A DNA stretch of 64,000 bases from an uncultured Thermoplasmatales archaeon (GTDB lineage: Archaea > Thermoplasmatota > E2 > DHVEG-1). Below, in pieces: positions 4,663-55,903 of this stretch. The first letter of the stretch is position 1; each line of letters starts with the position of its first letter. Below the pieces are notes generated by a model. The model saw only the letters and a program-made list of their open reading frames with translations. It searched no databases and had not been told where the DNA came from. Both the position numbers and the translations under genes were made by a program. The stretch covers positions 5,362 through 69,361 of the forward strand of contig CAYFVP010000141.1 of NCBI GenBank assembly GCA_964346655.1, in the 5' to 3' direction.

Positions 4663-5145
4663 ATGGAGTGCCCTTATTGTCATAATTCTGAAACAAAAGT
4701 AACCGACTCCCGCGATACAGGAGCTTTGTCAATTAGAAGAAGAAGGGAGTGTCTTAAATGTAGCAGAAGATTCACAACTTACGAACATATCGAAATGACC
4801 CAACTATATGTAATTAAAAAGGATGGCAGACGTGAAAAATTTGATAGAAACAAGATAAAAATAGGCATTATGAAAGCTCTTGAAAAAAGACAAGTAAGTC
4901 ATGATGAAATTGAAAAAATAGTTGATTCAATTGAAGAAAAAATAAGAAGACTTGGTAATGAAGAAATTGAAACCTCTGTAATTGGTGAATATGTAATGGA
5001 TGCTTTAAAAAACACTGATCATGTGGCCTATATCAGGTTTGCATCAGTCTATAGATCATTTACTGACCTTTCATCTTTTGAAAAAGAGGTTAAAAATCTA
5101 ATAAATCAATCAACTGGAGAGGTAAAAAATGATAAGAAAAATTAA
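4663..5145 (+). CDS. nrdR: transcriptional repressor NrdR (zinc ribbon + ATP-cone)
   Basis: MECPYCHNSETKVTDSRD...RRRECLKCSRRFTTYE is the NrdR N-terminal zinc ribbon, followed by an ATP-cone; 160 aa; overlaps the nrdD start. Confidence 0.85.
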   Translation: MECPYCHNSETKVTDSRDTGALSIRRRRECLKCSRRFTTYEHIEMTQLYVIKKDGRREKFDRNKIKIGIMKALEKRQVSHDEIEKIVDSIEEKIRRLGNEEIETSVIGEYVMDALKNTDHVAYIRFASVYRSFTDLSSFEKEVKNLINQSTGEVKNDKKN

Positions 5146-8100
5146 AAAAAGAGATGGGAAAATAACAGATTTTAATCCAATAAAAATAACAGAAGCGATT
5201 TGGAAGGCAGCCCAAGCAGTTGGCGGAAAGGATTATAAAAAATCAACTGAACTAACAGATAAAGTATTGATAAGACTTGAAAAGGAGTTAAAAAAAGGGG
5301 AAATTCCAACTGTTGAACAAGTTCAAAATGTTGTTGAAAAGACACTGATTGAGGAGGGTCATGCAAGAACAGCAAAGGCTTATATTCTGTATAGGAAACA
5401 ACATCAAGATATCCGAGAAATTGGAGGACTTCTGAAAGATATCGATGTTGTCGATGGATATTTATCAATGATGGATTGGAAGGTACAAGAGAACAGTAAC
5501 ATGGCCTATTCATTACAGGGATTAAATGTTTATGCAACTGAAAATATCATATCTCACTATTGGTTGAATAAAATATATCCACCAGAAATAGGAGAGGCTC
5601 ATACTAATGGTCAGTTTCATATTCATGATCTTGGTACTCTTGGAGCTTATACCTATTTTGGTAAAGAAACAATAATTGCCAAGGTCGATGGAAAAATCTT
5701 GATAACATCCTTTGAGGATCTTTATAAAAATACCAATTCAAAAGAAAACCTTATTTCAGAAAAGGATGATGCATGGGCACGATATCCAAAAGAAATTGAG
5801 GTGCTTGATAAGGATGGTTGGACTAAAGTTCTGAGAGTTGTAAAAAAAGCAAAACGAATACAAATGCATTTTATAAAAAACGAAGGTGGACGATCTGTAA
5901 TTGTTACTGAAGACCATCCAATGGTTCTGGGTGATGAAATTTTCAAAGAAGCAAAAGATATTATTCCTGAAGAAGATAAACTTTTAACGGTTGATATACA
6001 AGAGTTGCTTAAAAATGAAAATCTTTTTTATAAAAAATATCTTTATTTGGCTGATGAGCTTTATAAAAAAGATATTTTAGATTTTTTCATAGAAGGAATG
6101 CCACTGGAAGAATACCAAAAATTTTCAAACGACCTACAAATAAATGGAATTATTTCTACTTCAAATAATGCAGACTGTTTACCAAATAAAATAGAACTAA
6201 CTGAAAATCTTGGATATCTTGTTGGATTTTATCTAGCCGAGGGCTACATGGAGCTGCATAGGATCGGAATAACTCAAAAAGATACAGTAGAAAATAAAAA
6301 GATAATTGAAAAATTTAAAAAAGGCGCAAATGAACTTGGTTGCAGAATTTATTCGATGAAAGAAAATGATCTATTAAGACTCAGAATTGTAAACTCTACC
6401 TTAGTTAATTTCCTATTCAAAGAAATATTTAATTTAACAGGAAAATGTAAAGAAAAGCATCTACCAAATGAAATACTTACATATAACCAAGATTTTATCA
6501 AAGGTGTAATTGCAGGACTGCTTGATGGAGACGGTTCAGTAAATAGCTCGAAAACTAGTCTAGAGCTTAGAACAGCATCAAGAACAATGCTTGAACAACT
6601 AGCTGTTGTTATGAACATTTTTGGTTATACTATTAGAGACAGGAATCTGGAAGGAGTTGGTTCTACAAGATATCTCAATGGCAGACTTATTACTCAAAAT
6701 TATCCCTTATATGGAATAAGTTTTAGAAAAATAGATTGTTGTTTAAATTCGATTAAATACGCATCTGCTCAAACCTCTTCAAGAGCATGGAGGGCAGAAG
6801 GAGCTGGTTGGCATAAGGTCTTAAACAATGAAAAAACAGATATAATGGATGATTACATCTATGATATCACAACTGAATCAAACACTCTGATAGTAAATGG
6901 AATGTGGAACCATAACTGTGTAGGTTGGGATTTAAAAGACATATTGCTGTTAGGTTTCAAGGGAGTTGCAGGAAAAATTGAAAGTAAACCTGCAAAACAC
7001 TTCGGTACTGCACTAATGCAAATTGTAAATTATCTCTATACACTTCAGGGGGAAGCAGCTGGAGCACAAGCTCTATCTAACTTTGACTCTTTGTTGGCAC
7101 CTTTTATTAGATACGATGGTCTGAAATATGGTGATGTTAAACAAGAGATGCAGAAATTTTTATTCAATATGAATGTTCCTACAAGAGTAGGTTTCCAATC
7201 TTTAGCTCATGATGAACCCATAATTTATAGAAAAGATGGTAAAATAAAGGTTGAATTAATAGGAAAACTAATCGAAGAAAAATTTGGAGAAAATAGAAAA
7301 TCAATAATAAATAATGTAGATGGTTATGGCAATCCTTCTAAAGATTCATTTGCAGTAATACCAAATAACAAATTTGAAGTAATGAGCTTTAACAAAAAAG
7401 GTGAGATTCAATGGAGCCCGATAAAAGCATTGATTAAACATAGGGTAATAACTAATGGATTTAAAAAAATAAGGACAGGTTCAGGTGTTCTAAAAGTTTC
7501 CCCAGCTCATTCACTCTTCAGAAGCAATAGCAATCACATTAAACCTGTCATGGCAAAAGAACTAGAATGTGCTAAACCAAATTCAACATTAAATGGAAAT
7601 AACCACATACTAGCAGTTAACAAACTCAAACAAAATATTTTAGGTAATAATGACAGAATTGATTTATTTGATTTGATAGAAGAAATCCCTGAAAAAATAA
7701 AAAAACGAATATTTATTCAGGCAAAGGATGTACCATCAATAAAGCAAAAAATTGGTAACTTATATGGTTCATTAAAGGAATTTCTTTATAAAAATGGAAG
7801 ATCTGACAAATCCACTTTGTATGAAGGTTTTAGAAATAATATTGTTACTTTTGAAACCTATATTAAATATTCGGATGAATTAAGAAGTGATGCAAAGATT
7901 TACATAAAACCATATAACGAAAACCTTTATGATAGATATCTAAGTGGAGAGAAACTTAAGAATTTCGTAAAGCTAGTCGCTTGGTTTATAACAGAAGGAA
8001 AAGCATCTCATTCAGGAATTGTGATTTCACAGAGAAAAAGTAAAAGCAAGGAAATCCTTGAAGTTGCAAAAGCATTAGGAATTAAAGCTACCATAGAAGA

Positions 8101-11100
8101 AACCAGAGGATATAGCAATAAAAACCATAGTAAAACAAATACAATCATTTCAAATATGAAAATGAGTGGACTATACACTTATTTACTCCCATACATAGGT
8201 GGAGCTACCTCAAAAGAAAAGACTATACCTTCTTTCATATTTGATCTGAATCCAAATTATAGAAATATTTTCTTAGAGACACTGTTCAAAGGCGATGGAT
8301 ATAATGATAAAAAATCGAGAAGAATAACATATTCCTCAATGTCAGATAAACTTCTAACTGGCATATCGATGCTAAGCATAGTAAACGGATGGAGAGTTCG
8401 GGTAGTTCCAAAAAATAAAGATAGAGCTGGAACCCTACTTATATATAAAAATCCTAGGAAAAAGCTTGAGATAATCATTGAGGAAACAGCTGGTGTTCCA
8501 GTTTATGAAATAAATGATTATAAAAACGGCTCAAAATGGGAATATGATATTTCAGTGGACATCAATGGTTGCGAAGAAAATTTTGTTGGAGGAACTGGTC
8601 TAGTGTTTTATCATAATTCACCATTTTCAAACATAACTTTAGATCTTACTATTCCTAGCTATTTGACAGATGAACCTGCTATCATAGGTGGAGAATTAAA
8701 AAATGAAAACTACAGTGATTTCGTTGATGAAATGGAAATGATAAACTATGCATTTGCAGAAGTCATGCATGAGGGAGATGCTAAAGGGAGACCAATGACG
8801 TTTCCCATCCCTACTTATAACATTACAAAAGATTTTGATTGGGATAATGAGGGACTTGAACCTATTTGGAAGATGACTGCTAAATATGGAATACCATATT
8901 TTTCCAATTTTATTAACAGTGATATGAATCCAGATGATGCACGAAGCATGTGCTGCAGACTTAGATTAGACAACAGAGAACTTCGAAAGCGTGGTGGAGG
9001 TTTATTTGGAGCTAATCCAAAAACTGGAAGTGTTGGTGTTGTGACAATAAACATGCCACAAATTGGATATCTAGCAAAAGATGATAATGACTTTTTTGAA
9101 AGACTTGATAAATTAATGGATTTAGCAAAACAAAGTCTTATTATTAAACGTGAAATAATCGAAAATTTCACTTTTAGCGGTCTACATCCGTATTCACGAT
9201 TTTATTTATCTGATGTTAAAAAAACATTTAAGGAATACTGGAAGAATCATTTTTCGACCATTGGCTTGATTGGAATGAATGATGCTTTGTTGAACTTTAT
9301 GAACAAAAGTATTGGTGATAAGGAAGGTAAAGCTTTTGCTGAGAAAGTACTTGATCATATGCGGGATAAGATAGCGGATTTTCAGGAGGAAACTGGTGAT
9401 ATTTTTAACCTTGAAGCAACTCCTGCGGAGGGTAGTTTAGCACCTGATGAAAGAGTAATTATCTCTCAAAGTGACCCAAGATTTAGTGCAATTGGTCCAT
9501 TAATTGATTATTATCTAGAGAGCAATAAAAACGATATTTATATGGTTGGGACTAGCGAGGTTCTTAAAATTCCATATGGGAAGTTGTTTACCTATGGGTT
9601 TAGTAGGAGGACGCAAAAAATTAAAAAATACCCGGTTACTGCCCTTGTAAGACACTTTGGTAAGTCAATGTATGAAATAACCACACGTTCTGGTAGAAAA
9701 GTAAGAGTTACCGGACAACACAGTGTTTTTTCATTGAACTCGGAGGGATCACCTGAGGAGATCTATGTAAGAGATCTTGATATTGGTACCCCTATTGCTA
9801 TTCCAAAATATATTGAAATGGAATCACGCTATAAAGAGTTTAATTTATTTGAATTGTTCAAAAACTCGTCCTTTAAAAACCAACTATATGGAAAATTCCC
9901 ATCTACTTTTATCGAACACCTACTCAAAGAATCAAGAATAGAAAGATGGTGTAATCAAAACTATAAATCTAAATGGAAAGATGTAAAGTATATGTGGAGG
10001 AAAAGGGGTGTTATTCCTCTGAAGTTGATTTATGATTTAGATATCAAGATACAAAAAAATGTGTTGAAAAACTCAAAATTATTCTATCGATCTTCAAAGA
10101 ATACCAACCCAATTAAGGTTTTGATACCAGTTAATGAAGATCTTGGTTTTATAATTGGTTGCCTTCTTTCTGAGGGATGGTTGACTAAAAGATGTGAATT
10201 CACTAATACTGACAAGGATCTTGTAGATCAGTTTCTGAAATCTGTTGAAAAAATATTTGGTCCTAGCTCTGCTCATATTGCTAATCAAAACCGTAAGGAA
10301 CCACGAAAAACTCTTTATTCTGTTACTTTGAGTAAGTCTATCGGTTTTTTCTTTAAAGAAATTTGTTTCCAAGGTAAATCTAAAGTTAAAGAAATACCGA
10401 ATTTTATTTATTCATCTTCTCTTAAATGCATTACAGGTCTTTTAAGAGGTTATTATCTTGGTGACGGTTCTTTTTATAAAAATAAAGATAAACGGGATTA
10501 TTCAATATGGTTATATACAAATTCTAAGGAATTATCTGAAGGTCTGAATTTACTTCTTCTTAGATCTGGGATTCTTACAAAGATCGGGGTAGATAAAAAA
10601 ACAAATTATAATTCAAAGTGGAACGATAATTATGTTATATCTATTACTGGTGCTGATAATTTAAGTACGTTTTTCAAAAAAATACTTAAAAAGGATTTTA
10701 GCACAGACAATGCTCATTCGGGAAGAGAAATTTTACCTAATATCCCTAAAATTCTAAAACAATTAATGCAGAAATATAACATTAAACCATCTGATATAAA
10801 TATTCATAAAGACAGTTTTAATAGAAATATTAGAATCAACAGAATTAGCATTCAATATCTTAGAAAAATCATTGAGAAACTTTCGATCTATGTAGAAGAA
10901 AAAGATGAAACATTTGAAAAACTTAGAACAATGATTAACTCTGATATATATTGGGATGAAATTAAGGAAATTAAAAAACTAAAACCCACTAAATATGTTT
11001 ACGATTTTGAAGTTGATATAAAGGATGATCTTGTCAACAATTTCCTTGGTGGAAGTGGACTGGTTTGTTTGCACAATACAAGTTATCGTATTGCAAGAAT

Positions 11101-11602
11101 TGATAAAGCCCAATATCCTGATATTAGAATTTATAATCAGGAAAAATATAACGGTGGAAATGGCGGTAAAGGAGTAGAACCTTATTATACAAATTCTACA
11201 CAGTTACCTGTTGGTTATACAAGTGATGTTTTTGAAGCTTTAGATTTGCAAGACTCCCTACAATCAAAATATACCGGTGGAACCGTTTTGCATATCTTCC
11301 TTGGAGAAGAACCCTCTTTTGGTGCTGTTAGAAAGCTGGTACGTAAGATTGCAGAGAATTATCATTTACCATATTATACTCTAACTCCAACCTTTAGCGT
11401 ATGTCCAAATCACGGATATATTGCCGGTAAACATAAAACATGTCCTATTTGTGTTAGGGATAAAATAATTACAGCATGTGAGGTATATTCTCGAGTTGTA
11501 GGTTATTTAAGGCCTGTAAATCAATGGAACAAAGGCAAACAGCAGGAATTTTCAGATCGTAAAACATTTGATATGATGGAAAAAGTTATGGTTAAGAAAT
11601 GA
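5129..11602 (+). CDS. nrdD: anaerobic ribonucleoside-triphosphate reductase NrdD (class III, glycyl-radical enzyme) interrupted by three inteins
   Basis: Extein motifs ATENI...NGQFHIHDL, CVGWDL, PFSNITLDL, CCRLRLD, NLEATPAEG/TSYRIAR, YYTNSTQLP, and the C-terminal CPICV zinc site with the glycyl-radical region RVVGYLRPVNQWNKGKQQE. 2157 aa in total against about 716 aa of extein. Confidence 0.9.
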   Translation: MIRKIKKRDGKITDFNPIKITEAIWKAAQAVGGKDYKKSTELTDKVLIRLEKELKKGEIPTVEQVQNVVEKTLIEEGHARTAKAYILYRKQHQDIREIGGLLKDIDVVDGYLSMMDWKVQENSNMAYSLQGLNVYATENIISHYWLNKIYPPEIGEAHTNGQFHIHDLGTLGAYTYFGKETIIAKVDGKILITSFEDLYKNTNSKENLISEKDDAWARYPKEIEVLDKDGWTKVLRVVKKAKRIQMHFIKNEGGRSVIVTEDHPMVLGDEIFKEAKDIIPEEDKLLTVDIQELLKNENLFYKKYLYLADELYKKDILDFFIEGMPLEEYQKFSNDLQINGIISTSNNADCLPNKIELTENLGYLVGFYLAEGYMELHRIGITQKDTVENKKIIEKFKKGANELGCRIYSMKENDLLRLRIVNSTLVNFLFKEIFNLTGKCKEKHLPNEILTYNQDFIKGVIAGLLDGDGSVNSSKTSLELRTASRTMLEQLAVVMNIFGYTIRDRNLEGVGSTRYLNGRLITQNYPLYGISFRKIDCCLNSIKYASAQTSSRAWRAEGAGWHKVLNNEKTDIMDDYIYDITTESNTLIVNGMWNHNCVGWDLKDILLLGFKGVAGKIESKPAKHFGTALMQIVNYLYTLQGEAAGAQALSNFDSLLAPFIRYDGLKYGDVKQEMQKFLFNMNVPTRVGFQSLAHDEPIIYRKDGKIKVELIGKLIEEKFGENRKSIINNVDGYGNPSKDSFAVIPNNKFEVMSFNKKGEIQWSPIKALIKHRVITNGFKKIRTGSGVLKVSPAHSLFRSNSNHIKPVMAKELECAKPNSTLNGNNHILAVNKLKQNILGNNDRIDLFDLIEEIPEKIKKRIFIQAKDVPSIKQKIGNLYGSLKEFLYKNGRSDKSTLYEGFRNNIVTFETYIKYSDELRSDAKIYIKPYNENLYDRYLSGEKLKNFVKLVAWFITEGKASHSGIVISQRKSKSKEILEVAKALGIKATIEETRGYSNKNHSKTNTIISNMKMSGLYTYLLPYIGGATSKEKTIPSFIFDLNPNYRNIFLETLFKGDGYNDKKSRRITYSSMSDKLLTGISMLSIVNGWRVRVVPKNKDRAGTLLIYKNPRKKLEIIIEETAGVPVYEINDYKNGSKWEYDISVDINGCEENFVGGTGLVFYHNSPFSNITLDLTIPSYLTDEPAIIGGELKNENYSDFVDEMEMINYAFAEVMHEGDAKGRPMTFPIPTYNITKDFDWDNEGLEPIWKMTAKYGIPYFSNFINSDMNPDDARSMCCRLRLDNRELRKRGGGLFGANPKTGSVGVVTINMPQIGYLAKDDNDFFERLDKLMDLAKQSLIIKREIIENFTFSGLHPYSRFYLSDVKKTFKEYWKNHFSTIGLIGMNDALLNFMNKSIGDKEGKAFAEKVLDHMRDKIADFQEETGDIFNLEATPAEGSLAPDERVIISQSDPRFSAIGPLIDYYLESNKNDIYMVGTSEVLKIPYGKLFTYGFSRRTQKIKKYPVTALVRHFGKSMYEITTRSGRKVRVTGQHSVFSLNSEGSPEEIYVRDLDIGTPIAIPKYIEMESRYKEFNLFELFKNSSFKNQLYGKFPSTFIEHLLKESRIERWCNQNYKSKWKDVKYMWRKRGVIPLKLIYDLDIKIQKNVLKNSKLFYRSSKNTNPIKVLIPVNEDLGFIIGCLLSEGWLTKRCEFTNTDKDLVDQFLKSVEKIFGPSSAHIANQNRKEPRKTLYSVTLSKSIGFFFKEICFQGKSKVKEIPNFIYSSSLKCITGLLRGYYLGDGSFYKNKDKRDYSIWLYTNSKELSEGLNLLLLRSGILTKIGVDKKTNYNSKWNDNYVISITGADNLSTFFKKILKKDFSTDNAHSGREILPNIPKILKQLMQKYNIKPSDINIHKDSFNRNIRINRISIQYLRKIIEKLSIYVEEKDETFEKLRTMINSDIYWDEIKEIKKLKPTKYVYDFEVDIKDDLVNNFLGGSGLVCLHNTSYRIARIDKAQYPDIRIYNQEKYNGGNGGKGVEPYYTNSTQLPVGYTSDVFEALDLQDSLQSKYTGGTVLHIFLGEEPSFGAVRKLVRKIAENYHLPYYTLTPTFSVCPNHGYIAGKHKTCPICVRDKIITACEVYSRVVGYLRPVNQWNKGKQQEFSDRKTFDMMEKVMVKK
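5654..6916 (+). mobile_element. NrdD intein 1 (about 421 aa) with LAGLIDADG homing endonuclease domain
   Basis: Block B TEDH, LAGLIDADG motifs LGYLVGFYLAEGY and IKGVIAGLLDGDGSV, C-terminal NGMWNHN followed by the +1 Cys of CVGWDL. The N-terminal boundary is uncertain by 2 aa and has no Cys/Ser at position 1. Confidence 0.75.
7199..8617 (+). mobile_element. NrdD intein 2 (473 aa) with LAGLIDADG homing endonuclease domain
   Basis: Starts SLAHDEPII (Ser1 block A), block B SPAH, LAGLIDADG-like LVAWFITEGKA and FLETLFKGDGY, ends GGTGLVFYHN with +1 Ser (SPFSNITLD). Inserted in the conserved TRVGFQ/SPF site. Confidence 0.8.
9434..11077 (+). mobile_element. NrdD intein 3 (548 aa) with LAGLIDADG homing endonuclease domain
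   Basis: Starts SLAPDERVI right after TPAEG, block B TGQH, LAGLIDADG motifs LGFIIGCLLSEGW and ITGLLRGYYLGDGSF, ends GGSGLVCLHN with +1 Thr (TSYRIAR). Confidence 0.8.
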
Positions 11603-12291
11603 ACATAGGTGGTCTTCAAAAAACATCACTTTTGGATTACCCTGATACAATTAGTGCAATAATTTGGACAGTTGGATGTAATTTCCGTTGTCCTTTTTGT
11701 TATAACAAAGACCTTGTTTTAGGTAATGTTGAAAATATTTCCGAAAAAGATATTTTCTCATTTCTTGAAAAAAGAAAAGGCTTGCTTGAAGGATTGGTAA
11801 TTTCCGGTGGAGAACCACTTATGCAAAAGGACATTGTCCAGTTTATAGAAAAAGTGAAAAAACTTGGTTATAAAATAAAAATTGACACAAACGGAATGTA
11901 TCCAGAAAAACTCAAAGAGCTTATTGATAAAAAACTTGTTGATTACATTGCTATGGATATTAAGGCACCTATTGATAAATATGACCAATTGTCTGGAATA
12001 AAAACAGATATAAAAAAGATTGAAAAATCAATTGAAATAATTCGTAATTCTTCTGTTGATTACGAGTTTAAAACAACTTTTGTTCCTAGTCTTTTAACAA
12101 AGGAAGATATCCTTAGTATCGGAAAATTGCTTAAAGGATCTAAAAAATACTATCTTCAACAGTTCAAAGGTGATGTTCCTCTTATTTCTTCTAAACTTGA
12201 AAATGCCAATCCATATTCAAAAGATGATTTATTTGATACTTTAGAAAAGATTAAACCTTATTTTAAATTCTGTGATATTAGAGGTATATGA
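11599..12291 (+). CDS. nrdG: anaerobic ribonucleotide reductase activating protein (radical SAM)
   Basis: GCNFRCPFCYN CxxxCxxC cluster motif and GGEPLMQ; ATGA overlap with the nrdD stop. Confidence 0.85.
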   Translation: MNIGGLQKTSLLDYPDTISAIIWTVGCNFRCPFCYNKDLVLGNVENISEKDIFSFLEKRKGLLEGLVISGGEPLMQKDIVQFIEKVKKLGYKIKIDTNGMYPEKLKELIDKKLVDYIAMDIKAPIDKYDQLSGIKTDIKKIEKSIEIIRNSSVDYEFKTTFVPSLLTKEDILSIGKLLKGSKKYYLQQFKGDVPLISSKLENANPYSKDDLFDTLEKIKPYFKFCDIRGI

Positions 12292-12725
12292 CAGTTTTAA
12301 GTGAAGAAATTCTTAAGGATCTTGAACTTGCAAGAAATGTGATTGCAACCGAAGATATTTCTGTAGTTGTTGTCAAATATGGAAAAATATGGAAGAAGAA
12401 AAAAGGGGATGGAGTGCGATCAATTCTAGAAACAATTATTGAGATGGGTAAAGATATTAACGGGTCAGTTATTGGAAAAAAAATTCTTGGAAAGGCATCA
12501 GCTCTTCTTTGCAGATATGCAAAGGTATCTGGTGTTTACTCTCCTCAAGGAACAAAAACCGCTATTGCTCTCTTAATCATGGGGGGAGTTCCCTGCCGGG
12601 TTGATAAGATGATTCCCTTTATTGAAAATAATGACAGTTCAGGCCTTTATATTTTTGAAAAAATGCTAAAAGAGATTAATTCACCAAATGAGGCATACGC
12701 AATTTTAAAAGAAAAACTTCTATAA
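12288..12725 (+). CDS. hypothetical protein (145 aa, possibly DUF1893/TM1506-like), translationally coupled to nrdG
   Basis: 4-nt overlap with the nrdG stop; no CxxC motif; the family assignment is from memory only. Confidence 0.4.
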   Translation: MTVLSEEILKDLELARNVIATEDISVVVVKYGKIWKKKKGDGVRSILETIIEMGKDINGSVIGKKILGKASALLCRYAKVSGVYSPQGTKTAIALLIMGGVPCRVDKMIPFIENNDSSGLYIFEKMLKEINSPNEAYAILKEKLL

Positions 12726-12751: not shown

Positions 12752-13684
12752 TTGGGATTGTCTATGGATTATGAACTGGCAATAATTGGTGCAGGACCTG
12801 CAGGTTACACAGCAGCAATATATGCAGTAAGGGCTGGAATTAAACCTATTGTTTTTGATAAAATAGGGGGTGGTGGTCTTGCAAATGTTTCTCCAAAGAT
12901 TGAAAACTATCCAGGTTTTGAAGAAATTACTGGAATGGATCTTATGGAAAAAATGCAGAAGCATACCTTGAAATACACTGATATACATTTTATTGAAGAA
13001 GTAAAAAAAATAGTGAAAAAAGGAAGTAATTTTACAATTGAAACGACAAATGAAAAATATTTAGTAAAAGCAGTTATCCTTTGTATGGGGACAGAGTATC
13101 GAAAACTTGGAATTTCTGGAGAAAAAGAGCTACAGGGAAAGGGAGTATCATATTGTGCAACTTGTGATGGTTATTTTTTTAAAGGAAAAAAAGTAGCAGT
13201 AATTGGAGGGGGTAATACTGCAGTAATTGAATCAATTTATTTGAAACAAATAGGTTGTAAAGAAGTAAACCTAATACATAGAAGAAATCAACTAAGAGCT
13301 GAAAAGGCTTATCAAGATGAAGCAATTCAAAAGGACATTAATATTATCTTTGATACACATGTTGAGAAAATTTTTGGTAAAGAAAAAATTGAATTTTTAG
13401 AGCTTCATAATGTAAAAACAGATAAAATTTCTAAACTTTTTGTTGATGGTGTATTTGTTTCCATTGGTGAAGAGCCACAAAATGCTCTTGCAAAAGAACT
13501 TGGTTGTAAACTTGATAAAAAAGGTTATGTGATAGTTGATAAAGAGCAAAGAACAAATATTAAAGGCGTTTATGCCGCAGGGGACATTACTGGTGGTTTA
13601 AGGCAGGTAATTACTGCATGTGCAGAAGGTGCAATTGCGGCTCTTTCTTCAACAGAGGTTTTAGGAAAAAAATATCCCTATTAA
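12752..13684 (+). CDS. trxB: thioredoxin-disulfide reductase
   Basis: AIIGAGPAGYTAAIYA FAD motif, CATCDG redox-active disulfide, GGGNTA NADPH motif. The likely true start is Met5 at 12764. Confidence 0.85.
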   Translation: MGLSMDYELAIIGAGPAGYTAAIYAVRAGIKPIVFDKIGGGGLANVSPKIENYPGFEEITGMDLMEKMQKHTLKYTDIHFIEEVKKIVKKGSNFTIETTNEKYLVKAVILCMGTEYRKLGISGEKELQGKGVSYCATCDGYFFKGKKVAVIGGGNTAVIESIYLKQIGCKEVNLIHRRNQLRAEKAYQDEAIQKDINIIFDTHVEKIFGKEKIEFLELHNVKTDKISKLFVDGVFVSIGEEPQNALAKELGCKLDKKGYVIVDKEQRTNIKGVYAAGDITGGLRQVITACAEGAIAALSSTEVLGKKYPY

Positions 13685-29601: not shown

Positions 29602-30267
29602 ATGATAACAAAACAAAAATTAGTATTTTTATTAGCTGTTTTATTTATAGGTACATTATTATTTTCTGGATGTATAGAAAACGGTGATGCTGTAACATAT
29701 AAAGTTATATTCAAATCTACATGGAGCGAAGAAACACATCCTGATGATTTTCCACCAAATCCACATTTTTCAGGTCTAATAGGAGCATCTCATAACGATA
29801 AAGTATCTTTTTGGAAGGAAGGAAAACTTGCATCTCTTGGTATAAAAAACATGGCTGAAACAGGAAGCAAAGATCCTTTAACTAATTATATCAACGATGC
29901 AATCTCCGATGGAACAGCCTATAAATTGTTATCAGGCAATGGAATCGGTTCCTCACCAGGATCAACCAGTTTATTCTTTAAAGTAAAAGAAGAATACCCA
30001 CTTGTTACCTTGGTAACTATGATAGCACCAAGCCCTGATTGGTTTGTTGGTGTGGATAGTTTAAATCTTTTTGAAAATGGAGCATTCGTTGATAAAAAAG
30101 CCGTTACACTTTATGCATATGATTCAGGAACAGATAATGGTTCTACGTACAAATCACCTAACAATCCAATAGATCTGCCTGTTCCTATATTCAAAATTGA
30201 AGGATACCCATTTTTATATGATGAACAATTAGTACCATTAGGAATATTTACATTTATAAAAATTTAG
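29602..30267 (+). CDS. lipoprotein with Spondin_N-like domain
   Basis: Lipobox LLFSGC; ...HPDDFPPNPHFSGLIGASHN... and SPDWFVGVD segments resemble the F-spondin N-terminal domain. Confidence 0.45.
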   Translation: MITKQKLVFLLAVLFIGTLLFSGCIENGDAVTYKVIFKSTWSEETHPDDFPPNPHFSGLIGASHNDKVSFWKEGKLASLGIKNMAETGSKDPLTNYINDAISDGTAYKLLSGNGIGSSPGSTSLFFKVKEEYPLVTLVTMIAPSPDWFVGVDSLNLFENGAFVDKKAVTLYAYDSGTDNGSTYKSPNNPIDLPVPIFKIEGYPFLYDEQLVPLGIFTFIKI

Positions 30268-31842
30268 AGTGTTTAGTTGTCCTAGTATGTGTAAAAGAAT
30301 TGGGAATTGATCATAAAAAACTGAGTAAATATTGAAATTTGATATTCTACCCCTTGGGATATTTACAACAATTTCACTCCAATCACTCATAGAACCAAAA
30401 TTATCTTTTGCTTTTACTTTAATTGTAACTTTACCTTTATCCCACGTGTGTTTATAATAAACATTTTGACCTGAGTCATATGGTCCATCCCACTCTATTA
30501 TATCTCCATCACCCCAATCAACATAGAAATAAACCCTGTTTTTATTTGGATCAATTGCTGAAATGGTGTATGTTCCTTCTTCATTTGGTCTTAAACTAGT
30601 TGGGCCATTAATTTCTGGCTTATTTGGTCCTTGATTTTTAGCCCCGATTTTAATTACCCAAACGTCTAGATTTTCTTCTTTATAAAAACCAGTATACCCA
30701 GTAATTATATAACCACCGTCGGATGTTTGTATACCTGAATAACCAATATCTTCGGTATCATCTTTATCTAATATTTGACTCCATTCTTCCTTTCCTGATG
30801 CATCAGTTTTTATTAGATAAACATCAGGATCTAATTTTATAGGGTCAGTAAAATAACCTGTAATAAAATATCCGCCATCTTTAGTCTGTTGAACAGAATA
30901 TCCCTCATCACTTTTGCTTCCTCCGAAAAATTGGCTCCATTCTTTGTTTCCTTGTGAATCTGTTTTTATTAAATAAATATCAAAATTTCCAAACTCAATT
31001 TCGTGCCATCCACTGATTATGTATCCTCCGTCTGTTGTCTGTTGAACACAATGACCACCATCCCATCTATCTCCACCAAATGTTTGGCTCCATTCTTCGT
31101 TTCCTAAAGAATCGGTTTTAATTAAATAGACATCTCCTTCAATGCCGAAGGAATCTGTTTCTCCTGCAATAATAAATCCACCATCAGTAGTTTGTTGAAC
31201 ACAGTTACCTACATCCACATCAGTTCCTCCAAAAGTTTGATTCCATTCCTCTTCACCATTGGCATTAATTTTTATTAACCATGCATCGCATGCTCCCCCG
31301 ATACCGAAGGTCTGTGTCCACCCAGCAACAATGTATCCACCATCACTTGTTTGTTGAACACTTTGAGCTAAATCATAAACACTAGGATTACCGAAGGTGC
31401 ATGACCACTCAATATTTCCATTTGTATCTGTTTTTTGTAAAACAGCATTATATCTATTGGCGACTCCTTCAAAACCGGCAATAATATATCCGCCATCACT
31501 TGTTTGTTGAATACTTTTACCAACATGTTCTGAATCGTATTGTCCATATATTTGGGTCCATTCTTGATTTCCATTAGAATCGATTTTTATTAAATAAAAA
31601 TGACTATACCATAAAGACCAAGCATTTCTTAAGTAAGTACCAGAAATAATAAACCCGCCATCACTTGTTTGTTGAATACTGTTGCCCCAATCGATAAGAT
31701 CGCCGCCATATGTTGCTTCCCAATCAACATTTGGCCGAAACAAATATGGATTTTTGATTTTAATTTCCGTTGCTACTACTGGTAAAACAGTAGCGACTAT
31801 CATTATCGTGCAAACAAGTATTCCACTTATTTTATTCTTCAT
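30238..31842 (-). CDS. secreted SBBP beta-propeller repeat protein with C-terminal PKD-like domain
   Basis: At least seven repeats of W(S/T)QxFGG...VQQT(S/T)DGGYII(A/S)G; signal peptide; C-terminal YTISAIDPNKNRVYFYVDWGDG. Confidence 0.65.
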   Translation of the reverse strand: MKNKISGILVCTIMIVATVLPVVATEIKIKNPYLFRPNVDWEATYGGDLIDWGNSIQQTSDGGFIISGTYLRNAWSLWYSHFYLIKIDSNGNQEWTQIYGQYDSEHVGKSIQQTSDGGYIIAGFEGVANRYNAVLQKTDTNGNIEWSCTFGNPSVYDLAQSVQQTSDGGYIVAGWTQTFGIGGACDAWLIKINANGEEEWNQTFGGTDVDVGNCVQQTTDGGFIIAGETDSFGIEGDVYLIKTDSLGNEEWSQTFGGDRWDGGHCVQQTTDGGYIISGWHEIEFGNFDIYLIKTDSQGNKEWSQFFGGSKSDEGYSVQQTKDGGYFITGYFTDPIKLDPDVYLIKTDASGKEEWSQILDKDDTEDIGYSGIQTSDGGYIITGYTGFYKEENLDVWVIKIGAKNQGPNKPEINGPTSLRPNEEGTYTISAIDPNKNRVYFYVDWGDGDIIEWDGPYDSGQNVYYKHTWDKGKVTIKVKAKDNFGSMSDWSEIVVNIPRGRISNFNIYSVFYDQFPILLHILGQLNTLNFYKCKYS

Positions 31843-48466: not shown

Positions 48467-51400
48467 CTACTCTTCCTCTAAAATTTTCTCAAAATCATCG
48501 ATATCAAAAGTAATACCTATAGAAATATCTGTTTCTAATATTTCTAGATTTCCTTCCCACATATACGTGTAGTTTTTATCATCTTCACTAATTATACCAC
48601 TTATTGCTGATACATTGTAATATCCAGGTGTTAGTTCAATAAGATATTGACCATTTTCATCTGACATAGAACTTTCAGAAATTGCAGTATTATTTTCTAC
48701 AGTTATATCTGATATAAAGTCGATTGTGACATTATCAATATTTAAACCTTCATAAGAGGTTGTTCCAGAGACCGTTACAGATTTCTTTATTAGAGTTATG
48801 TTATAAGATGCCACTTCATCTTCTTTTACTAATACAAGGTAACCTTCAAAGATATATACGAGGGTATCGCCTTCATATTGATCGACTGTTACATTATAAG
48901 ATCCAGGAATAATATCATCACTATAGAAACCATTACTATTAGATACAAATGTGTCTGCCACTGCTGTATTGTCTTCAACAGATTCATTTTTATCAAAATT
49001 TATTACAATATTTCCAATAGATTCCCCGTTATAATATGTATTACCTGAGAGCCTTATAGGTGCTAGCCCAATAGATATATTTTGATAGGTAGTTTGATTT
49101 TCAGCTGGATAAAGTGTTACCTCAGATAAATACTCAGGAGGTTTTGAAGCTCGTATTAAATAGTTATTAACTTCAAGATTATTAATAATACCAGGAATAA
49201 GTGAGTCAAATGAATATGAGCCATTTGCATCTGTTTTAGTGCTAGAAACAGGAATTTGTTGATCTGTTTGTTCAATGTATAAAATTAATTCAACATCAGT
49301 ATTTGGTAATAATTCATTTGAATCGATTTTTTCATCACCATCTTCATCAAAATAAATTAAACCTTCAATTCTTGCAGGTTTTGCATTAATTATATTTTGT
49401 GTATTATTACCTTCATTTAAAGCTAAATCTACTAAATAATTAAAGAATTGTCCTCTTGTAGCAGTTACTCTATAAATACCTGGTAATAAACCTGAGGTAT
49501 TATAATAACCATTTTCATCTGTGGTTAAATAGGATGCATTTCCAAAATCAAGTTCAATTTTATTTTCGTTGTTTTCATCTTTATAAAATCTTGTGATTCT
49601 ATACAGATTAACTTCTAAATCAGGTATGGGCTCATCAATTGTGGCATTATAAAGGCCATTATAATCTGTATCATTAAAAACATATCCAGATACGTTTGCA
49701 GATTCTATTGCCACATCAAGATATCGTTCAAAATTTGAACCATTTCTACGCATGGCATCATCATCAGTAATGGGTGCGAAATTACTGCCATATGGGCCAT
49801 CAAATGTAATATTTCTATAGATAAATAACTGTCCCTCATCAACATTTTTTCGAATCTGAACTACAACATCGGCACCAGCAATAAGACTAAAATTGCCTGT
49901 CTCGTTTTCATCGAGTGTATTAATAATATCAAGATCGTGATCTATTGGAATAGAAAAATTCTCATAATAGGTATTATTCTTTATAACTACAACTTCACAA
50001 TCAATTGGTACCCCTTTAAAAGTTACAGTCCCATTGACATGGGCACCTTCATAATATTTTGCAATAACAACTGCTGCTTTTCCTGTATCATAATAAGGAT
50101 ATTTGGATAAATCTGAGAAATACTCAGCATAAAAATGCTTCATATTGGCACAAGGAATCTGGTAAGTAAATTCTTCTTTTGCACCTGGTTCCCCTTGTGC
50201 AGGACCAATATAAGTTCTATAAAACATTGTTTCAAAATAAAGATCTTTATATTTTCTATTAGTATTTGTGACAACTATTTTACTTCTCTCTGTCCTACTT
50301 AAACCCAAAAGTTCATCAGCTTTCCAAGTTTTATCCTGGACTTTATTTCCTTGTGAATCAACTGTATATCCTTCATAAATTAATTCAACAAAATCATCAG
50401 CAATCCCATTTATTAATAGCAAGCTTTTATCTGATAAAAATGCAAAAATACTAAAAATTTGCCGATCATAACCCTCAACACCATAATAACGAATACTCCA
50501 GCCTGTAGCTTCCTGCAAGTCGTGATAGAGCCATGTAACACCTTCATCATCCAATGTTTCATTAATGATTTTTATAGTATCATGATAAACTGCGTTTTCT
50601 GCATACTGCTGACCAACTGTATAATCCTTACTGGTTTCTGGATCATATTCTTCTCCAATCGGATTTCCGTAAGAATCAGCAGTTTTATGGTTCTGAAGCC
50701 AACCAGCAATTTTTAAAGAATTATTTTCACCCAAATACTTGGTTAATATTTCAATTACTTTTTCAGAGGGTCTTCTATCATCATCGAGTCTTATATTTCC
50801 TTCTAAAAGTCTTACAATTAAAACAGAGACAGCTTCTTTTTCACTAGTTGCGGTATGAAAATTAGCAGCAACTGGTATTCCATCCTGGAAATTGTCAGCA
50901 ACAGTTGGATGTTCACCAAGAGCTGCTTCATAAAATCCATAGTCCCACCAAGATATAAAACCAGGTCTATCAGCTGGATTTTCAATCTCAGTATCTTGTT
51001 TTTTTAACCATTCAAATGCATCTGCCCAATATCTTTCTTTAATTATTGCTAAACCATAAGCTCCTTGGTGTTCCCTACCAAAACTTTCCCATTTTAATAG
51101 ACTAGACCTATCATCAGGATTCGCGGCATTTGGGACAGCTGCATCAAAAGCAACAAAGGTATTTGGTAAAATAATAATAAATGCTAAAAATAATATTCCA
51201 AAAAGATGTAAAAATTTTACACCTCGACGAATACCATGGAAACCTCCACCTGCACTTCTAATATTTCTTATCATTTGTTTATAATCAATCCAATCTATAA
51301 ATATCCAAATAACCCATCCAGAAAGAATAGCAATAACAGGTACCATATCATTTATAAAACGACCTGCAATACTTGCAAGCCATAGGTTCATTACAAATAA

Positions 51401-52720
51401 CATAGCGATAAATAGATAATCGCGACGGTTTTTATTTTTGTAATACCGAAAACAAATAAGGAAAAAACCGGCCCAGCCTATCCAATAGAGTGCAGGACCA
51501 AATGACATAACAGTATGACTTATCTGATAAGTATTTGCTTCAGCAATTGTCATTGATACTTTTGCACCATAAATGCCCTTTCCAAAAATTACCTCTGCAA
51601 GTCGACTAACAGGTGAGAGAAAGCTATATTGCTCAGCTAAATCTCTAGCAAAATATATAAATGCTAAACCAGCAGCACCAACACCAAAAATTGTAGGAAG
51701 GGAAAGAGTCCATGGAACTTTTAATCTTCCGAAGAGATAATAAATAACACCAAATAATGTTACACCTGCACAAATATATAATGCGACATTTGTTTGAAAT
51801 CCTTCAGGGGAAATAGATACAACTGGTAATGAAATAAGGTAACCTGACCATAGTAAAACACCGGTATTTCTAAATACCTTAAATTCTATCTTATCTGTAA
51901 ATATATCAATTAACATTTGTAGAATTGCATATATCGCAATTATGGTATACAGATAACGTGCCTCTACCCATGTCATTGATAGACCCGCTAGAGAAACGCC
52001 TCCAAGTATTGCATATAAAATAGATTTTTTAGAATCGTCCTCTCTAATACATTTTATTAAAAATAAAAATGTTAGGAAAAATAGTAAAAGATTAAATGAA
52101 TCGTGATCAAAAAGTCCATAGGCTGATCCGTGGCCTGAACCAAGATGAACAGGAATAATTGCAATAAAAAAAGCAGCTATCAGCCCTGCTTTTCTATTGA
52201 ATAACTCTTTTCCTATAAAATACACTACAAATATAATTAAAGCTCCAAATAGTGCTGGAATAAAAAGCATAGAGTAACCAATTGCTTCTATTTCATCCAT
52301 AAAAGGTACCAGAACCCTACTAAAACCCAAAGCCATCATATTAAACAATGGAGCTCTACCACCTTTTGCCCCTAAAGGATAGTTTAACAGAGGATCATTT
52401 TCATAAAAATATGGATAACGACCTTCAGTATATGTTCCTTTAACTAATCTTACGTTATAATATGGATCAGGTCCAGAATAATAGAATTTATCAAAACCTT
52501 CACCTTCAGGATTAATAGTAGCTTCACTATATAAATTAAAATAGGTGTTTAGAAATAACACTAAAAAGAACAAACCTATCAGGGTAACTACAATCCACCA
52601 GTCCTTTTTCTTTTTAATTTGTTTTTTTTCATCCAGATATTTTCTAGGATATGCCGGTTCAGATGGTTCATAAAATGTGGGTCTGCTTTTTCTCTGTGCT
52701 CTTTTACGCATCAATTTCAC
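48467..52720 (-). CDS. aglB: archaeal oligosaccharyltransferase AglB (STT3) with long C-terminal Ig-like/carboxypeptidase-regulatory-like repeats
   Basis: Multi-TM N-terminal half and the WWDYGF motif (FISWWDYGFYEA). The C-terminal roughly 500 aa hold repeated PGIYRVTA / GYVFND-type beta-sandwich modules. 1417 aa. Confidence 0.8.
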   Translation of the reverse strand: MKLMRKRAQRKSRPTFYEPSEPAYPRKYLDEKKQIKKKKDWWIVVTLIGLFFLVLFLNTYFNLYSEATINPEGEGFDKFYYSGPDPYYNVRLVKGTYTEGRYPYFYENDPLLNYPLGAKGGRAPLFNMMALGFSRVLVPFMDEIEAIGYSMLFIPALFGALIIFVVYFIGKELFNRKAGLIAAFFIAIIPVHLGSGHGSAYGLFDHDSFNLLLFFLTFLFLIKCIREDDSKKSILYAILGGVSLAGLSMTWVEARYLYTIIAIYAILQMLIDIFTDKIEFKVFRNTGVLLWSGYLISLPVVSISPEGFQTNVALYICAGVTLFGVIYYLFGRLKVPWTLSLPTIFGVGAAGLAFIYFARDLAEQYSFLSPVSRLAEVIFGKGIYGAKVSMTIAEANTYQISHTVMSFGPALYWIGWAGFFLICFRYYKNKNRRDYLFIAMLFVMNLWLASIAGRFINDMVPVIAILSGWVIWIFIDWIDYKQMIRNIRSAGGGFHGIRRGVKFLHLFGILFLAFIIILPNTFVAFDAAVPNAANPDDRSSLLKWESFGREHQGAYGLAIIKERYWADAFEWLKKQDTEIENPADRPGFISWWDYGFYEAALGEHPTVADNFQDGIPVAANFHTATSEKEAVSVLIVRLLEGNIRLDDDRRPSEKVIEILTKYLGENNSLKIAGWLQNHKTADSYGNPIGEEYDPETSKDYTVGQQYAENAVYHDTIKIINETLDDEGVTWLYHDLQEATGWSIRYYGVEGYDRQIFSIFAFLSDKSLLLINGIADDFVELIYEGYTVDSQGNKVQDKTWKADELLGLSRTERSKIVVTNTNRKYKDLYFETMFYRTYIGPAQGEPGAKEEFTYQIPCANMKHFYAEYFSDLSKYPYYDTGKAAVVIAKYYEGAHVNGTVTFKGVPIDCEVVVIKNNTYYENFSIPIDHDLDIINTLDENETGNFSLIAGADVVVQIRKNVDEGQLFIYRNITFDGPYGSNFAPITDDDAMRRNGSNFERYLDVAIESANVSGYVFNDTDYNGLYNATIDEPIPDLEVNLYRITRFYKDENNENKIELDFGNASYLTTDENGYYNTSGLLPGIYRVTATRGQFFNYLVDLALNEGNNTQNIINAKPARIEGLIYFDEDGDEKIDSNELLPNTDVELILYIEQTDQQIPVSSTKTDANGSYSFDSLIPGIINNLEVNNYLIRASKPPEYLSEVTLYPAENQTTYQNISIGLAPIRLSGNTYYNGESIGNIVINFDKNESVEDNTAVADTFVSNSNGFYSDDIIPGSYNVTVDQYEGDTLVYIFEGYLVLVKEDEVASYNITLIKKSVTVSGTTSYEGLNIDNVTIDFISDITVENNTAISESSMSDENGQYLIELTPGYYNVSAISGIISEDDKNYTYMWEGNLEILETDISIGITFDIDDFEKILEEE

Positions 52721-53704: not shown

Positions 53705-55903
53705 TTGTCTTATTTATTTGTGGATGTGGGTGTAATGAGATTAAGAAGAATATTTCCTATTTTAGTAAGTGTCTCATTTTTATTATCATTTTTTATTGTT
53801 AATTCAATTGCTCAGGATGAAGAAATTGAAAATTTGGTTGAAGCAACCTTTAATATCGATTTTAACACTGCAACAGATCTAGTAATTAAAATAACAATAA
53901 ACGCTCAGAAATTAACAATGGCAGGTGAAACATTTACATCTGAGCAAATAAAGAATGCAAATGAGCAAGATTTAGGGTCATTTAGATTACTTTTATTTCA
54001 AATGCTTGAATCTCAATTAGAAAAAACGTTTAAAAATGCCGACATTTTAAATTTTACACGACCTATTTTCGATGGTAATTCTTTTCATGAAGAGTTAAAT
54101 GTAGAGCTAACATCGCCCTTTTTTGGACTGAATGAATCTGTTAATGCTCATCATTTTATAAATGGAGTTCTTGACATAAGCGGACTTGTAAATTATTCAA
54201 TTAATTTTTATTCAGAACCAGGATGGAATAATACATATTATGTAGATCTTGGGAAAAATTTAGATTATCAAAGAACAACAGGAAGCTTATTTGGAAATAA
54301 AATGAGTTGGTTATTACATAATTGGAATGGAATTAATCCTAGTAAAAAAGCAGAATTTCAGATAAAAAAGAAAATACCTACAACACAAAAATTAATTACT
54401 GAGGATATTTTTATTTCATATAAACTTGATTCAAGTGATACAATTAAAACAAGCTTAAATTGTAATTTAATTTTAAAATGTATAAACATAACATCCTACA
54501 ATATTATACCAAATTTTGTTTCAAATCTAGATATACTTCCTTCTGATGGAATTAGATTGTTTGTAAATAATGAATTTTTTTCCTGGGAAGATATATACCT
54601 AAACACAGTAAAACCGATAGAAGAAAATATTAAAACATCTATAGAAGAATCTAAATTAAATCAAACACTTAATCTTGAATTTGGTTGGGATCCTGGAACA
54701 ACTACAAATATTTCAGTTCCATTTGAAGTATCAAATATGGATGATTCTCCTCCAGTAAAGGCAGATATTAAAGAAAGCGATGTTAACATCAATATATGTG
54801 ATATTTCCAGTAGAGCTTTATTTGGTTTAATTAATACCGATGCCAAAGTAAACATAACAAAAGATGATATCAATTTTGGTGATAATCTAAAAAATATTGG
54901 TTATGATTACAATGTTAGCTTTTATCTTCCTGATCATTTATATTTAGCTGGAAAAAACATATTTGTATGGAATGAAAGTACAACAACTTTTGGAGAGTTT
55001 GAATCAGATATATCTAAAAGATATGATAGAGAAAATAAAGAAACAATTATTACTATTGAAATTTCAAATACAGATTTGAATTTACTAGGCTTTTTTACTG
55101 GTAATACAGAACTAACCTTTGGAATAAATTTCAAAGAAATAAGAAATTACAATATAACAAAAATTCCCAATGAATTTAGTTTACCTGAAAAAATAAAAAT
55201 TGATTATTTAAACTCAGATGCAATAAGATTGTTAATAGAAGAAAATGTTTTTAGCCAAAATAGTGTTGATGAATTTCTTAAAAATGAAAAAAAACATTTT
55301 GAAAGCATTTTAAGACATATTTTACCAAACTTAGAAGTTAGTGGATCTATATTAAAAGGTGCTTTTGAAGATTCACTTGTCTGGAACGGAAATATATTAG
55401 AAATGGATTCTGGGGATTCAATTGTAGTTTCATCTGCTGCTAAAAGTACATATCCAATCCCCTTCCAATTATCATTTTTACCACCAAAATTTGAAATTCC
55501 ATATCAATATTTTAATTTCACAGGTATACCAAATCATGATGTAACATACAAAGTAATATTTCCGCATGGTATTTCTCTAAATGTTAAGGATCCTCTGGAT
55601 AAATCTGAAGTAGAAAAGACAAGTGATGGTAGACAGTATATATTTATTTCATTTACTTCTGATGAAGCAAATCTCACAAATACCATATCTTATAAAATGA
55701 TTCCTTCTGCGTTTTTTATAATAGGTGTTTTTACACCGTGTATTATAAGTTTTCTAATTACAATAATATTGATTATAATTATTTTCCTTATTAGACATAA
55801 AAGAAAGGCAAAAAAGTTTGGAAGACATATTGAAGAAGGTGAAGAAGGTAGTGGTTATGAAGATGAGGAGTATTATATTCCACCACCTCCAGGCAGAAAA
55901 TAA
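53705..55903 (+). CDS. large surface protein with signal peptide and C-terminal TM anchor (possible S-layer/glycoprotein)
   Basis: Signal peptide after Met11 (start probably 53735); many N-x-S/T sequons; C-terminal TM helix followed by a basic/acidic tail ending PPPPGRK. Confidence 0.45.
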   Translation: MSYLFVDVGVMRLRRIFPILVSVSFLLSFFIVNSIAQDEEIENLVEATFNIDFNTATDLVIKITINAQKLTMAGETFTSEQIKNANEQDLGSFRLLLFQMLESQLEKTFKNADILNFTRPIFDGNSFHEELNVELTSPFFGLNESVNAHHFINGVLDISGLVNYSINFYSEPGWNNTYYVDLGKNLDYQRTTGSLFGNKMSWLLHNWNGINPSKKAEFQIKKKIPTTQKLITEDIFISYKLDSSDTIKTSLNCNLILKCINITSYNIIPNFVSNLDILPSDGIRLFVNNEFFSWEDIYLNTVKPIEENIKTSIEESKLNQTLNLEFGWDPGTTTNISVPFEVSNMDDSPPVKADIKESDVNINICDISSRALFGLINTDAKVNITKDDINFGDNLKNIGYDYNVSFYLPDHLYLAGKNIFVWNESTTTFGEFESDISKRYDRENKETIITIEISNTDLNLLGFFTGNTELTFGINFKEIRNYNITKIPNEFSLPEKIKIDYLNSDAIRLLIEENVFSQNSVDEFLKNEKKHFESILRHILPNLEVSGSILKGAFEDSLVWNGNILEMDSGDSIVVSSAAKSTYPIPFQLSFLPPKFEIPYQYFNFTGIPNHDVTYKVIFPHGISLNVKDPLDKSEVEKTSDGRQYIFISFTSDEANLTNTISYKMIPSAFFIIGVFTPCIISFLITIILIIIIFLIRHKRKAKKFGRHIEEGEEGSGYEDEEYYIPPPPGRK

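Follow-up and report, generated by a model that had tools for sequence, protein, structure and literature searches.

A class III ribonucleotide reductase gene of an uncultured Thermoplasmatota archaeon carries three inteins, one of which begins with threonine

Several euryarchaeal ribonucleotide reductases (RNRs) carry more than one intein, among them those of Methanocaldococcus jannaschii (inteins RNR-1 and RNR-2 in InBase) and of Pyrococcus (RIR1-1, RIR1-2 and RIR1-3). In these archaeal RNR catalytic subunits, conserved motifs are interrupted by two or three LAGLIDADG inteins. The same is true of the protein described here, which is encoded in a 64,000-nucleotide stretch of DNA (hereafter the window) from contig CAYFVP010000141.1 of an uncultured Thermoplasmatales archaeon. 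It differs from the earlier examples in its host enzyme, a Thermoplasmatota class III RNR (NrdD) of the NF006126 type, in the combination of insertion sites occupied (designated a, c and f), and in possessing an intein whose first residue is Thr (Thr1). Few proteins host inteins as often as RNRs, for which a count of 211 in bacteria and 43 in archaea is given (PMC4760082), and it has been stated more generally that "many genes host multiple inteins" (PMC8966425). A multi-intein archaeal RNR is an already known kind of protein, and the present one is a further case of the known pattern in which inteins target the active-site motifs of enzymes of replication and deoxynucleotide supply. The under-described family of Thr1 inteins at NrdD site a is the part worth following.

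Described structures are available for comparison with both host and inteins. The spliced NrdD aligns in one piece (residues 151-706) with the NrdD of Thermotoga maritima (PDB 4COI, 4U3E), and the two share the SCCR finger motif, the Zn ribbon and the glycyl-radical motif. The T. maritima enzyme lacks both inteins and an ATP-cone, unlike the NrdD of the window, and the phmmer match between them is modest (E 1.8e-33, 119 bits). PI-PkoII, the DNA polymerase intein of Thermococcus kodakarensis (PDB 2CW7), and the TliVMA and PhoVMA inteins (PDB 7QSS, 7QST) have the same layout as the three inteins of the window, a HINT domain with a two-motif LAGLIDADG endonuclease. They reside, however, in other hosts and at other insertion sites, they start with Ser or Cys rather than Thr, and their identity to the first intein is only 13-16% at the level of the fold. 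We read the window gene as a functional nrdD of an uncultured Thermoplasmatota archaeon that has been invaded at different conserved motifs by three independent mobile inteins, and we assign this reading a probability of about 0.88.

The precursor is encoded by a single open reading frame (ORF) of 2157 amino acids (aa) at positions 5129-11602 of the window (forward strand, as are all features of this gene; stop codon 11600-11602). The window contains about 30% G+C, so an open frame of 2157 codons is not attributable to chance, for which the probability estimated from base composition is about 1e-78. Pfam searches identified an ATP-cone, the NRDD domain in four separate stretches, Intein_splicing and LAGLIDADG_3, and NCBIfam matched the unspliced ORF to the NrdD equivalog NF006126, again in four stretches (964 bits), and to intein_Nterm three times. 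When the inteins were removed in silico, the resulting 714-aa protein gave one unbroken match to NF006126 (positions 2-683 of 684, 1052 bits against a cutoff of 548); TIGR02487 also identified NrdD, with 561 bits against a cutoff of 326. The inteins add up to 1443 aa, or 66.9% of the ORF. A reading of the window made from its sequence only (the sequence-only reading) had proposed a class III RNR of which about two thirds consisted of three Hint and LAGLIDADG inteins, and the NF006126 and intein models bear this out. That reading had also named native insertion as the alternative to be checked by alignment to NrdD, and the continuous match of the spliced protein, the existence of intein-free alleles and the His-Asn junctions with a +1 nucleophile all refute it.

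The extein lies in four segments. The first (aa 1-174, 5129-5650) includes the ATP-cone (aa 4-93) and ends with ...HIHDLGTLGAY; the second (aa 597-690, 6917-7198) begins with Cys597 and ends with ...RVGFQ; the third (aa 1164-1435, 8618-9433) begins with SPFSN, contains the finger loop SMCCRL (8945-8962) and ends with ...TPAEG; and the fourth (aa 1984-2157, 11078-11599) begins with TSYR and holds the Zn ribbon, CPNHGY (11402-11419) and CPIC (11441-11452), followed by the glycyl-radical motif RVVGY (aa 2122-2126, 11492-11506). The full-length equivalog match above cutoff, the glycyl-radical, Zn-ribbon and finger-loop motifs, the active-site Cys and the adjoining gene for an NrdG activase together establish membership in the NrdD family. 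Cys597 aligns with Cys125 of T. maritima NrdD, the active-site Cys conserved in all RNRs. Site a therefore splits the active-site Tyr|Cys pair, which corresponds to Tyr124 and Cys125 of the T. maritima enzyme, while sites c and f fall within the conserved motifs RVGFQ|SPF and PAEG|TSY, respectively. Tryptic peptides predicted to span the three junctions of the spliced NrdD are GQFHIHDLGTLGAYCVGWDLK, VGFQSPFSNITLDLTIPSYLTDEPAIIGGELK and IADFQEETGDIFNLEATPAEGTSYR.

The anatomy of the gene and the boundaries of its inteins were established from homologues that lack an insertion at the site in question, by aligning the trial extein to the 120 best of 234 public relatives; these 120 vary in length between 1187 and 2983 aa, as they differ in the number of insertions. 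All three inteins are precisely absent from some close homologues, in which the flanking sequences join exactly. Intein 1 occupies aa 175-596 (422 aa, 5651-6916), with the junctions ...HIHDLGTLGAY / TYFGKE...MWNHN / CVGWDL; intein 2 occupies aa 691-1163 (473 aa, 7199-8617), with the junctions ...RVGFQ / SLAHDE...VFYHN / SPFSN; and intein 3 occupies aa 1436-1983 (548 aa, 9434-11077), with the junctions ...TPAEG / SLAPDE...VCLHN / TSYR. Inteins 2 and 3 thus begin with Ser (Ser1) and end with ...GGTGLVFYHN and ...GGSGLVCLHN, and intein 1 ends with ...NGMWNHN. The C-terminal junctions are HN|C, HN|S and HN|T for inteins 1, 2 and 3, and they are conserved in orthologues at the same sites. Much of this anatomy had been anticipated: empty-site homologues agree with the +1 residues Cys, Ser and Thr, with a C-terminal His-Asn pair preceding the +1 nucleophile at all three junctions, and with insertion at conserved NrdD motifs (HIHDL...Y|CVGW, RVGFQ|SPF and TPAEG|TSYR). 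The proposed lengths of 473 and 548 aa were exact; that of intein 1 is 422 rather than 421 aa and that of the extein 714 rather than 716 aa, with boundaries within one residue of those proposed.

Each intein has a block B motif of the form (S/T)xxH. The motif is VTEDH (5903-5917) in intein 1, VSPAH (7496-7510) in intein 2 and VTGQH (9707-9721) in intein 3, and the latter two align to block B of PI-PkoII. The TxxH form proposed earlier for all three is accordingly found in inteins 1 and 3 but not in intein 2, which has S-P-A-H. The two LAGLIDADG motifs expected in each intein were also located: LVGFYLAEG (6218-6244) and IAGLLDGDG (6509-6535) in intein 1, LVAWFITEG (7973-7999) and TLFKGDG (8279-8299) in intein 2, and IIGCLLSEG (10151-10177) and LRGYYLGDG (10442-10468) in intein 3. 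Every motif ends in an acidic metal-binding residue, Glu or Asp. LAGLIDADG_3 of Pfam matches inteins 1, 2 and 3 with E values of 2.5e-10, 5e-8 and 5e-18. The alignment of intein 3 to the crystallised PI-PkoII (E 8e-24) takes in block B and the C-terminal ...GLVYAHN, and intein 2 has matches of about E 1e-7 to both PI-PkoII and the TFIIB mini-intein. TIGR01445 scores intein 1 at 28 bits, against a cutoff of 24.5.

The structure of intein 1 was predicted because its sequence is more divergent and lies at the Pfam cutoff. An AlphaFold2 model computed from an alignment of 18 site-a inteins (predicted local distance difference score, pLDDT, 92.1; predicted template modelling score, pTM, 0.92) was compared with the PDB by Foldseek. 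The best matches are TliVMA (E 1.4e-18), PI-PkoII, PhoVMA, PI-PfuI and PI-SceI, all endonuclease-containing inteins, and mini-inteins and I-DmoI, which match its two sub-domains, rank next. The modelled intein 1 has the HINT fold, and the sequence matches of inteins 2 and 3 to PI-PkoII, the TFIIB mini-intein and TIGR01445 predict the same fold for these two. By these signatures all three segments are assigned to class 1 HINT inteins with a nested two-motif LAGLIDADG endonuclease. No further intein copies were found in the 64-kb window. The inteins are lower in G+C (0.30-0.31) than the exteins (0.34-0.37), the third codon positions are similar (0.20-0.25), and the composition gave no sign of recent foreign origin.

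Only one excision restores the sequence ...GAY|CVGW... of the enzyme, and it places Thr175 (ACC, 5651-5653) as the first residue of intein 1, a point on which the sequence-only reading had not remarked. Thr is the rule at this site: 74 of the 75 site-a N-terminal junctions resolvable in the 120 top proteins have Thr, and the remaining one (P0058) has Ser. An exhaustive HMMER search with intein 1 of 1.84 billion cluster representatives (clustered at 50% identity) yielded 1109 relatives at E <= 1e-3 and 141 at E <= 1e-10. In those with a resolvable N-terminal junction, position 1 is Thr (31), Ser (14, plus 2 parsed one residue off) or Cys (11), and none has a non-nucleophile there; the C-terminal junction is HN|C in 154 of 162 cases. 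In 44 genomic loci Thr1 is encoded by ACC (21), ACT (9), ACA (9) and ACG (5). The use of all four codons indicates that the amino acid, and not the codon, is conserved. Five positions are invariant in the alignment of 18 site-a inteins, namely T86 and H89, which by our own reading would form block B, D405, which would belong to block F (IYDITTES), and H421 and N422 of the putative block G. This pattern at position 1 is the one expected of a class 1 intein in which Thr1 performs the first acyl shift.

Thr1 had not yet been observed in natural inteins according to a 2010 paper (Tori et al.), and InBase held no Thr1 intein as of 2009-2010, although an S1T mutant of the Tli Pol-2 intein does splice (as cited in PMC2807308). 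A 2014 review in the Journal of Biological Chemistry (PMC4031507) gave only Cys1 or Ser1 as nucleophiles of the first step; later papers include Thr1 within the formal definition of class 1 and name no example. In the open-access literature we came across no account of a natural Thr1 intein, or of an intein at NrdD site a, and an earlier description elsewhere is possible. The named members of the Thr1 clusters that we looked up were all proteins of metagenome-assembled genomes (MAGs), for example from Nealsonbacteria and Actinomycetota, which may be a reason for their absence from curated lists based on cultured genomes. Known phages are not an evident source of intein 1, as tblastn found no match to it among 50,697 GenBank phage records. 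It is possible, at somewhat less than even odds, that the site-a inteins form a large, almost wholly metagenomic family with a natural Thr nucleophile and with switching among Thr, Ser and Cys and, if they are indeed undescribed, the first natural Thr1 lineage of class 1.

Such a family, abundant in uncultured archaea and bacteria, in which Thr serves as the first residue and is maintained there by selection, would constitute a natural experiment on the choice of the first nucleophile in protein splicing. The combination of Thr1 with Cys+1 would mean that an oxy-ester is resolved by a thiol belonging to the enzyme's own catalytic cysteine. A Thr1 intein, once characterised, would extend what is known of splicing chemistry and might be of use in engineering. 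One relative of intein 1, in P0210 (aa 401-815), lies at another position of NrdD downstream of CCRL (...ESMRF|SFPGNE...LHN|CGFQNV) and has Ser1 and Cys+1; its location is evidence that the intein 1 lineage has moved between sites.

The alternative that stands up best concerns the chemistry of intein 1, which could splice in the manner of the class 2 (KlbA-type) inteins, with Cys+1 attacking the amide of the N-terminal junction directly and Thr1 serving as no nucleophile at all. The class 2 inteins of the Mja KlbA type resemble intein 1 in having neither of the usual residues Cys1 and Ser1, in their Cys+1, and in retaining the Thr and His of block B and the Asp of block F; moreover, Cys+1 is essentially invariant at site a, and the lack of Thr1 among natural inteins as of 2010 also speaks for such a route. 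A residue with no role as nucleophile would not, however, be expected to follow the pattern described above, in which position 1 is Thr, Ser or Cys and never Ala, Gly or Pro, and in which Thr is retained through all four synonymous codons, as selection for a side-chain nucleophile would give. The known class 2 inteins are all KlbA orthologues with Ala1 and a penultimate Ser, whereas intein 1 is found in NrdD, has Thr1 and an invariant penultimate His421, and has orthologues with Ser1 or Cys1. These features exclude intein 1 from class 2 as defined, and we consider the class 2 route unlikely. Class 3 inteins are defined by a non-nucleophilic residue 1 and a triplet of Trp in block B, Cys at position 4 of block F and Thr in block G. 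Membership in this class was also rejected: position 4 of block F is the invariant Asp405, block B (TEDHPM) has no Trp, and block G (MWNHN) has no Thr before the His-Asn pair.

We searched one genome per species and identified 65 related loci. Those at 77-89% identity all belong to MAGs of uncultured Thermoplasmatota, and the gene order ThiI-NrdR-NrdD-NrdG-DUF1893-TrxR is conserved in these relatives. At this syntenic locus (extein identity 77-87%) the presence or absence of inteins is polymorphic, with 0 to 3 inteins in many combinations. At least nine species have none (L048-L052, L054, L055, L061 and L062). Other states are a only, c only, e only, a+c, a+f, c+f, c+e and a+e, and the a+c+f arrangement of the window occurs in L003; the three-intein arrangement is also found in P0001 and P0002. 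L003 and P0001 have 74-83% amino-acid identity to the query, a level at which saturation of synonymous sites is expected. The intein-free alleles in relatives, whose existence the sequence-only reading had proposed to check, are 82-89% identical to the extein of the window gene, and around the three sites they differ from it mostly at third codon positions.

In metagenomes, alleles of this NrdD family as a rule contain several inteins, contrary to the earlier suggestion that a triple-intein enzyme of this type would be unusual. In the 120 top proteins plus the query, a sample biased toward intein-rich proteins, 21 have one intein, 67 two, 27 three, 5 four and one, P0013 (2983 aa), has five. 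There are at least nine insertion sites in NrdD, after extein residues 174, 220, 268, 328, 379, 380, 405, 540 and 608, and another lies near residue 578. With these counts and this many sites, a triple-intein NrdD is ordinary for its family. Together with the variable syntenic locus, the family (at least nine sites, up to five inteins per protein) provides a data set for study of the homing cycle, and it bears on the question of whether an essential anaerobic enzyme is controlled through the several inteins that it carries.

Several of the sites in homologues hold inteins of other kinds. Site c, which follows extein residue 268, is occupied by two unrelated types, one of about 473 aa (S...HN) and one of about 150-320 aa (C...GN). 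Sites 220 and 405 (for example in P0072, P0084, P0027 and P0054) have inteins that start with CY(S/D)(D/E)(D/K)T and end with ...W(C/S)GN|S, with Gly in place of the penultimate His. From their shared ends these look like one family at two sites, a candidate site jump. Another intein lies between the cysteines of the finger loop (RSMC|P(L/I)...THN|CRLRL) in P0013 (aa 1779-2108) and P0071 (aa 955-1122), and also in P0080, P0086, P0097, P0108, P0109, P0116 and P0120. For excision to restore SMCCRL, this intein would have to start with Pro; alternatively, it may be a Cys1 intein that would leave a loop with one Cys. Cys is the first residue of related inteins inserted one residue farther upstream (RSM|CLHP...HN|CCRL).

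In the mechanism that we propose, the 2157-aa precursor would undergo three autocatalytic splicing events that leave the 714-aa enzyme and set free three LAGLIDADG endonucleases. The product of the adjacent nrdG would then activate the spliced NrdD by installing the glycyl radical. Inteins 2 and 3 would use the standard class 1 set, consisting of Ser1, a block B (S/T)xxH, His-Asn, and Ser or Thr at +1. In intein 1 an N-to-O acyl shift would occur at Thr175, the N-extein would pass to Cys597 at +1, and cyclisation of Asn596 with an S-to-N shift would complete the reaction. Left unspliced, intein 1 deprives NrdD of a contiguous Tyr-Cys active-site strand, which makes splicing obligatory for activity. 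At the corresponding three sites of intein-free alleles, the endonucleases would introduce cuts through which the inteins are copied in by homing; homing at three sites would account for the patchwork of 0 to 3 inteins at the syntenic locus. Conservation of the extein argues that splicing does take place.

Some observations weigh against this account. Splicing and DNA cleavage by the three inteins are predicted from their sequences, and Thr, being a poorer nucleophile than Cys or Ser, may make intein 1 slow or temperature-dependent or may lead it to use another route. With the Pfam Intein_splicing model, the score of intein 1 just equals the cutoff (35.8 bits) and that of intein 2, taken alone, falls below it, so that the membership of these two rests on the other models and on the fold. 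The exact 2157-aa protein is not on record in public assemblies, and the window is probably a metagenome assembly; P0001, P0002 and L003 nevertheless show the same three-intein arrangement.

One could go further and suppose that one or more of the inteins are dead for splicing, and that this copy of nrdD is a decaying pseudogene or a non-functional product of assembly. Three sequential splicing events are demanding, expression of nrdD is only presumed, and the lack of the exact protein in the public collection would fit such a supposition. The 6.5-kb ORF is nonetheless intact in AT-rich DNA, every catalytic residue of the three inteins and of NrdD is present, and the operon partners are intact as well. 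Decay is also at odds with an extein so close to the intein-free alleles, with the concentration of differences near the sites at third codon positions, and with the recurrence of the three-intein arrangement in other sequences. We judge a non-functional copy very improbable and favor a functional nrdD with three predicted active inteins.

A different question is whether inteins 2 and 3 are the products of a recent duplication, or of ectopic homing in which one intein entered another site in the gene, as the sequence-only reading had suggested from their ends. The ends are indeed alike, with SLA(H/P)DE at the N-terminus and NF.GG(T/S)GLV..HN at the C-terminus, and both inteins have the same best NCBIfam match, a model of intein-containing RpoA''. 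In BLASTP the similarity is confined to the last 30 aa (50% identity, E 6e-5); over their entire lengths of 473 and 548 aa, identity is 22%, equal to that of intein 1 with either. Far closer sequences occur independently at the same sites elsewhere, where orthologues reach 91% identity for intein 2 and 76% for intein 3. The closest same-site partner is P0028 for intein 1 (84%), P0014 for intein 2 (91%) and P0001 for intein 3 (76%), and these different partners indicate separate histories. The shared ends (SLAxDE.../NF.GG.GL...HN) are found in PI-PkoII also (...ENFLVGFGLVYAHN) and thus mark a broad intein clade. The global identity of 22% and the same-site orthologues lead us to reject a recent duplication, and transfer between the two sites is a most improbable explanation as a whole. 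The two may still share a very old common origin within one intein clade.

The notion that the extra segments are lineage-specific domains of NrdD has nothing beyond their in-frame position to recommend it and a negligible probability, as each segment is missing to the residue in close relatives and bears the sequence and fold signatures of HINT and LAGLIDADG, and homologous elements occur in unrelated hosts, such as P0164 (C...HN|T junction), whose sequence looks like an RNA-polymerase subunit.

The nrdD gene is part of an apparent operon on the forward strand. Upstream is a gene for an NrdR-like regulator with a Zn ribbon and an ATP-cone (4663-5145; TIGR00244, 186 bits, cutoff 125), the end of which overlaps the start of nrdD by 17 nucleotides. 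NrdR is mainly bacterial; here a regulator of this type appears in an archaeal context, at a position conserved in the Thermoplasmatota relatives. Downstream, nrdG (11599-12291; TIGR02495 NrdG2, 232 bits, cutoff 131), whose start overlaps the stop codon of nrdD, encodes the radical-SAM activase of NrdD. It is followed by a DUF1893 (TM1506-like) gene (12288-12725), conserved downstream of nrdG in relatives, and by a gene for thioredoxin-disulfide reductase (12752-13684; TIGR01292, 353 bits, cutoff 343), which is in the same operon in relatives. The DUF1893 and thioredoxin reductase genes and the CC finger loop suggest that the reductant of this NrdD is probably a thiol/disulfide system and not formate.

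Elsewhere in the window, two ORFs, of 732 aa (53705-55903, forward strand) and 534 aa (30238-31842, reverse strand), have no Pfam match at E <= 1e-3. Other genes are archaeal in character and include those for deoxyhypusine synthase, AglB/STT3 and geranylgeranyl reductases; scans of the window for tRNAs and Rfam families yielded no taxonomic information. The AglB/STT3 oligosaccharyltransferase (48467-52720, reverse strand) is 1417 aa long and has a long C-terminal extension with CarboxypepD_reg, SdrD_B and prealbumin-like repeats.

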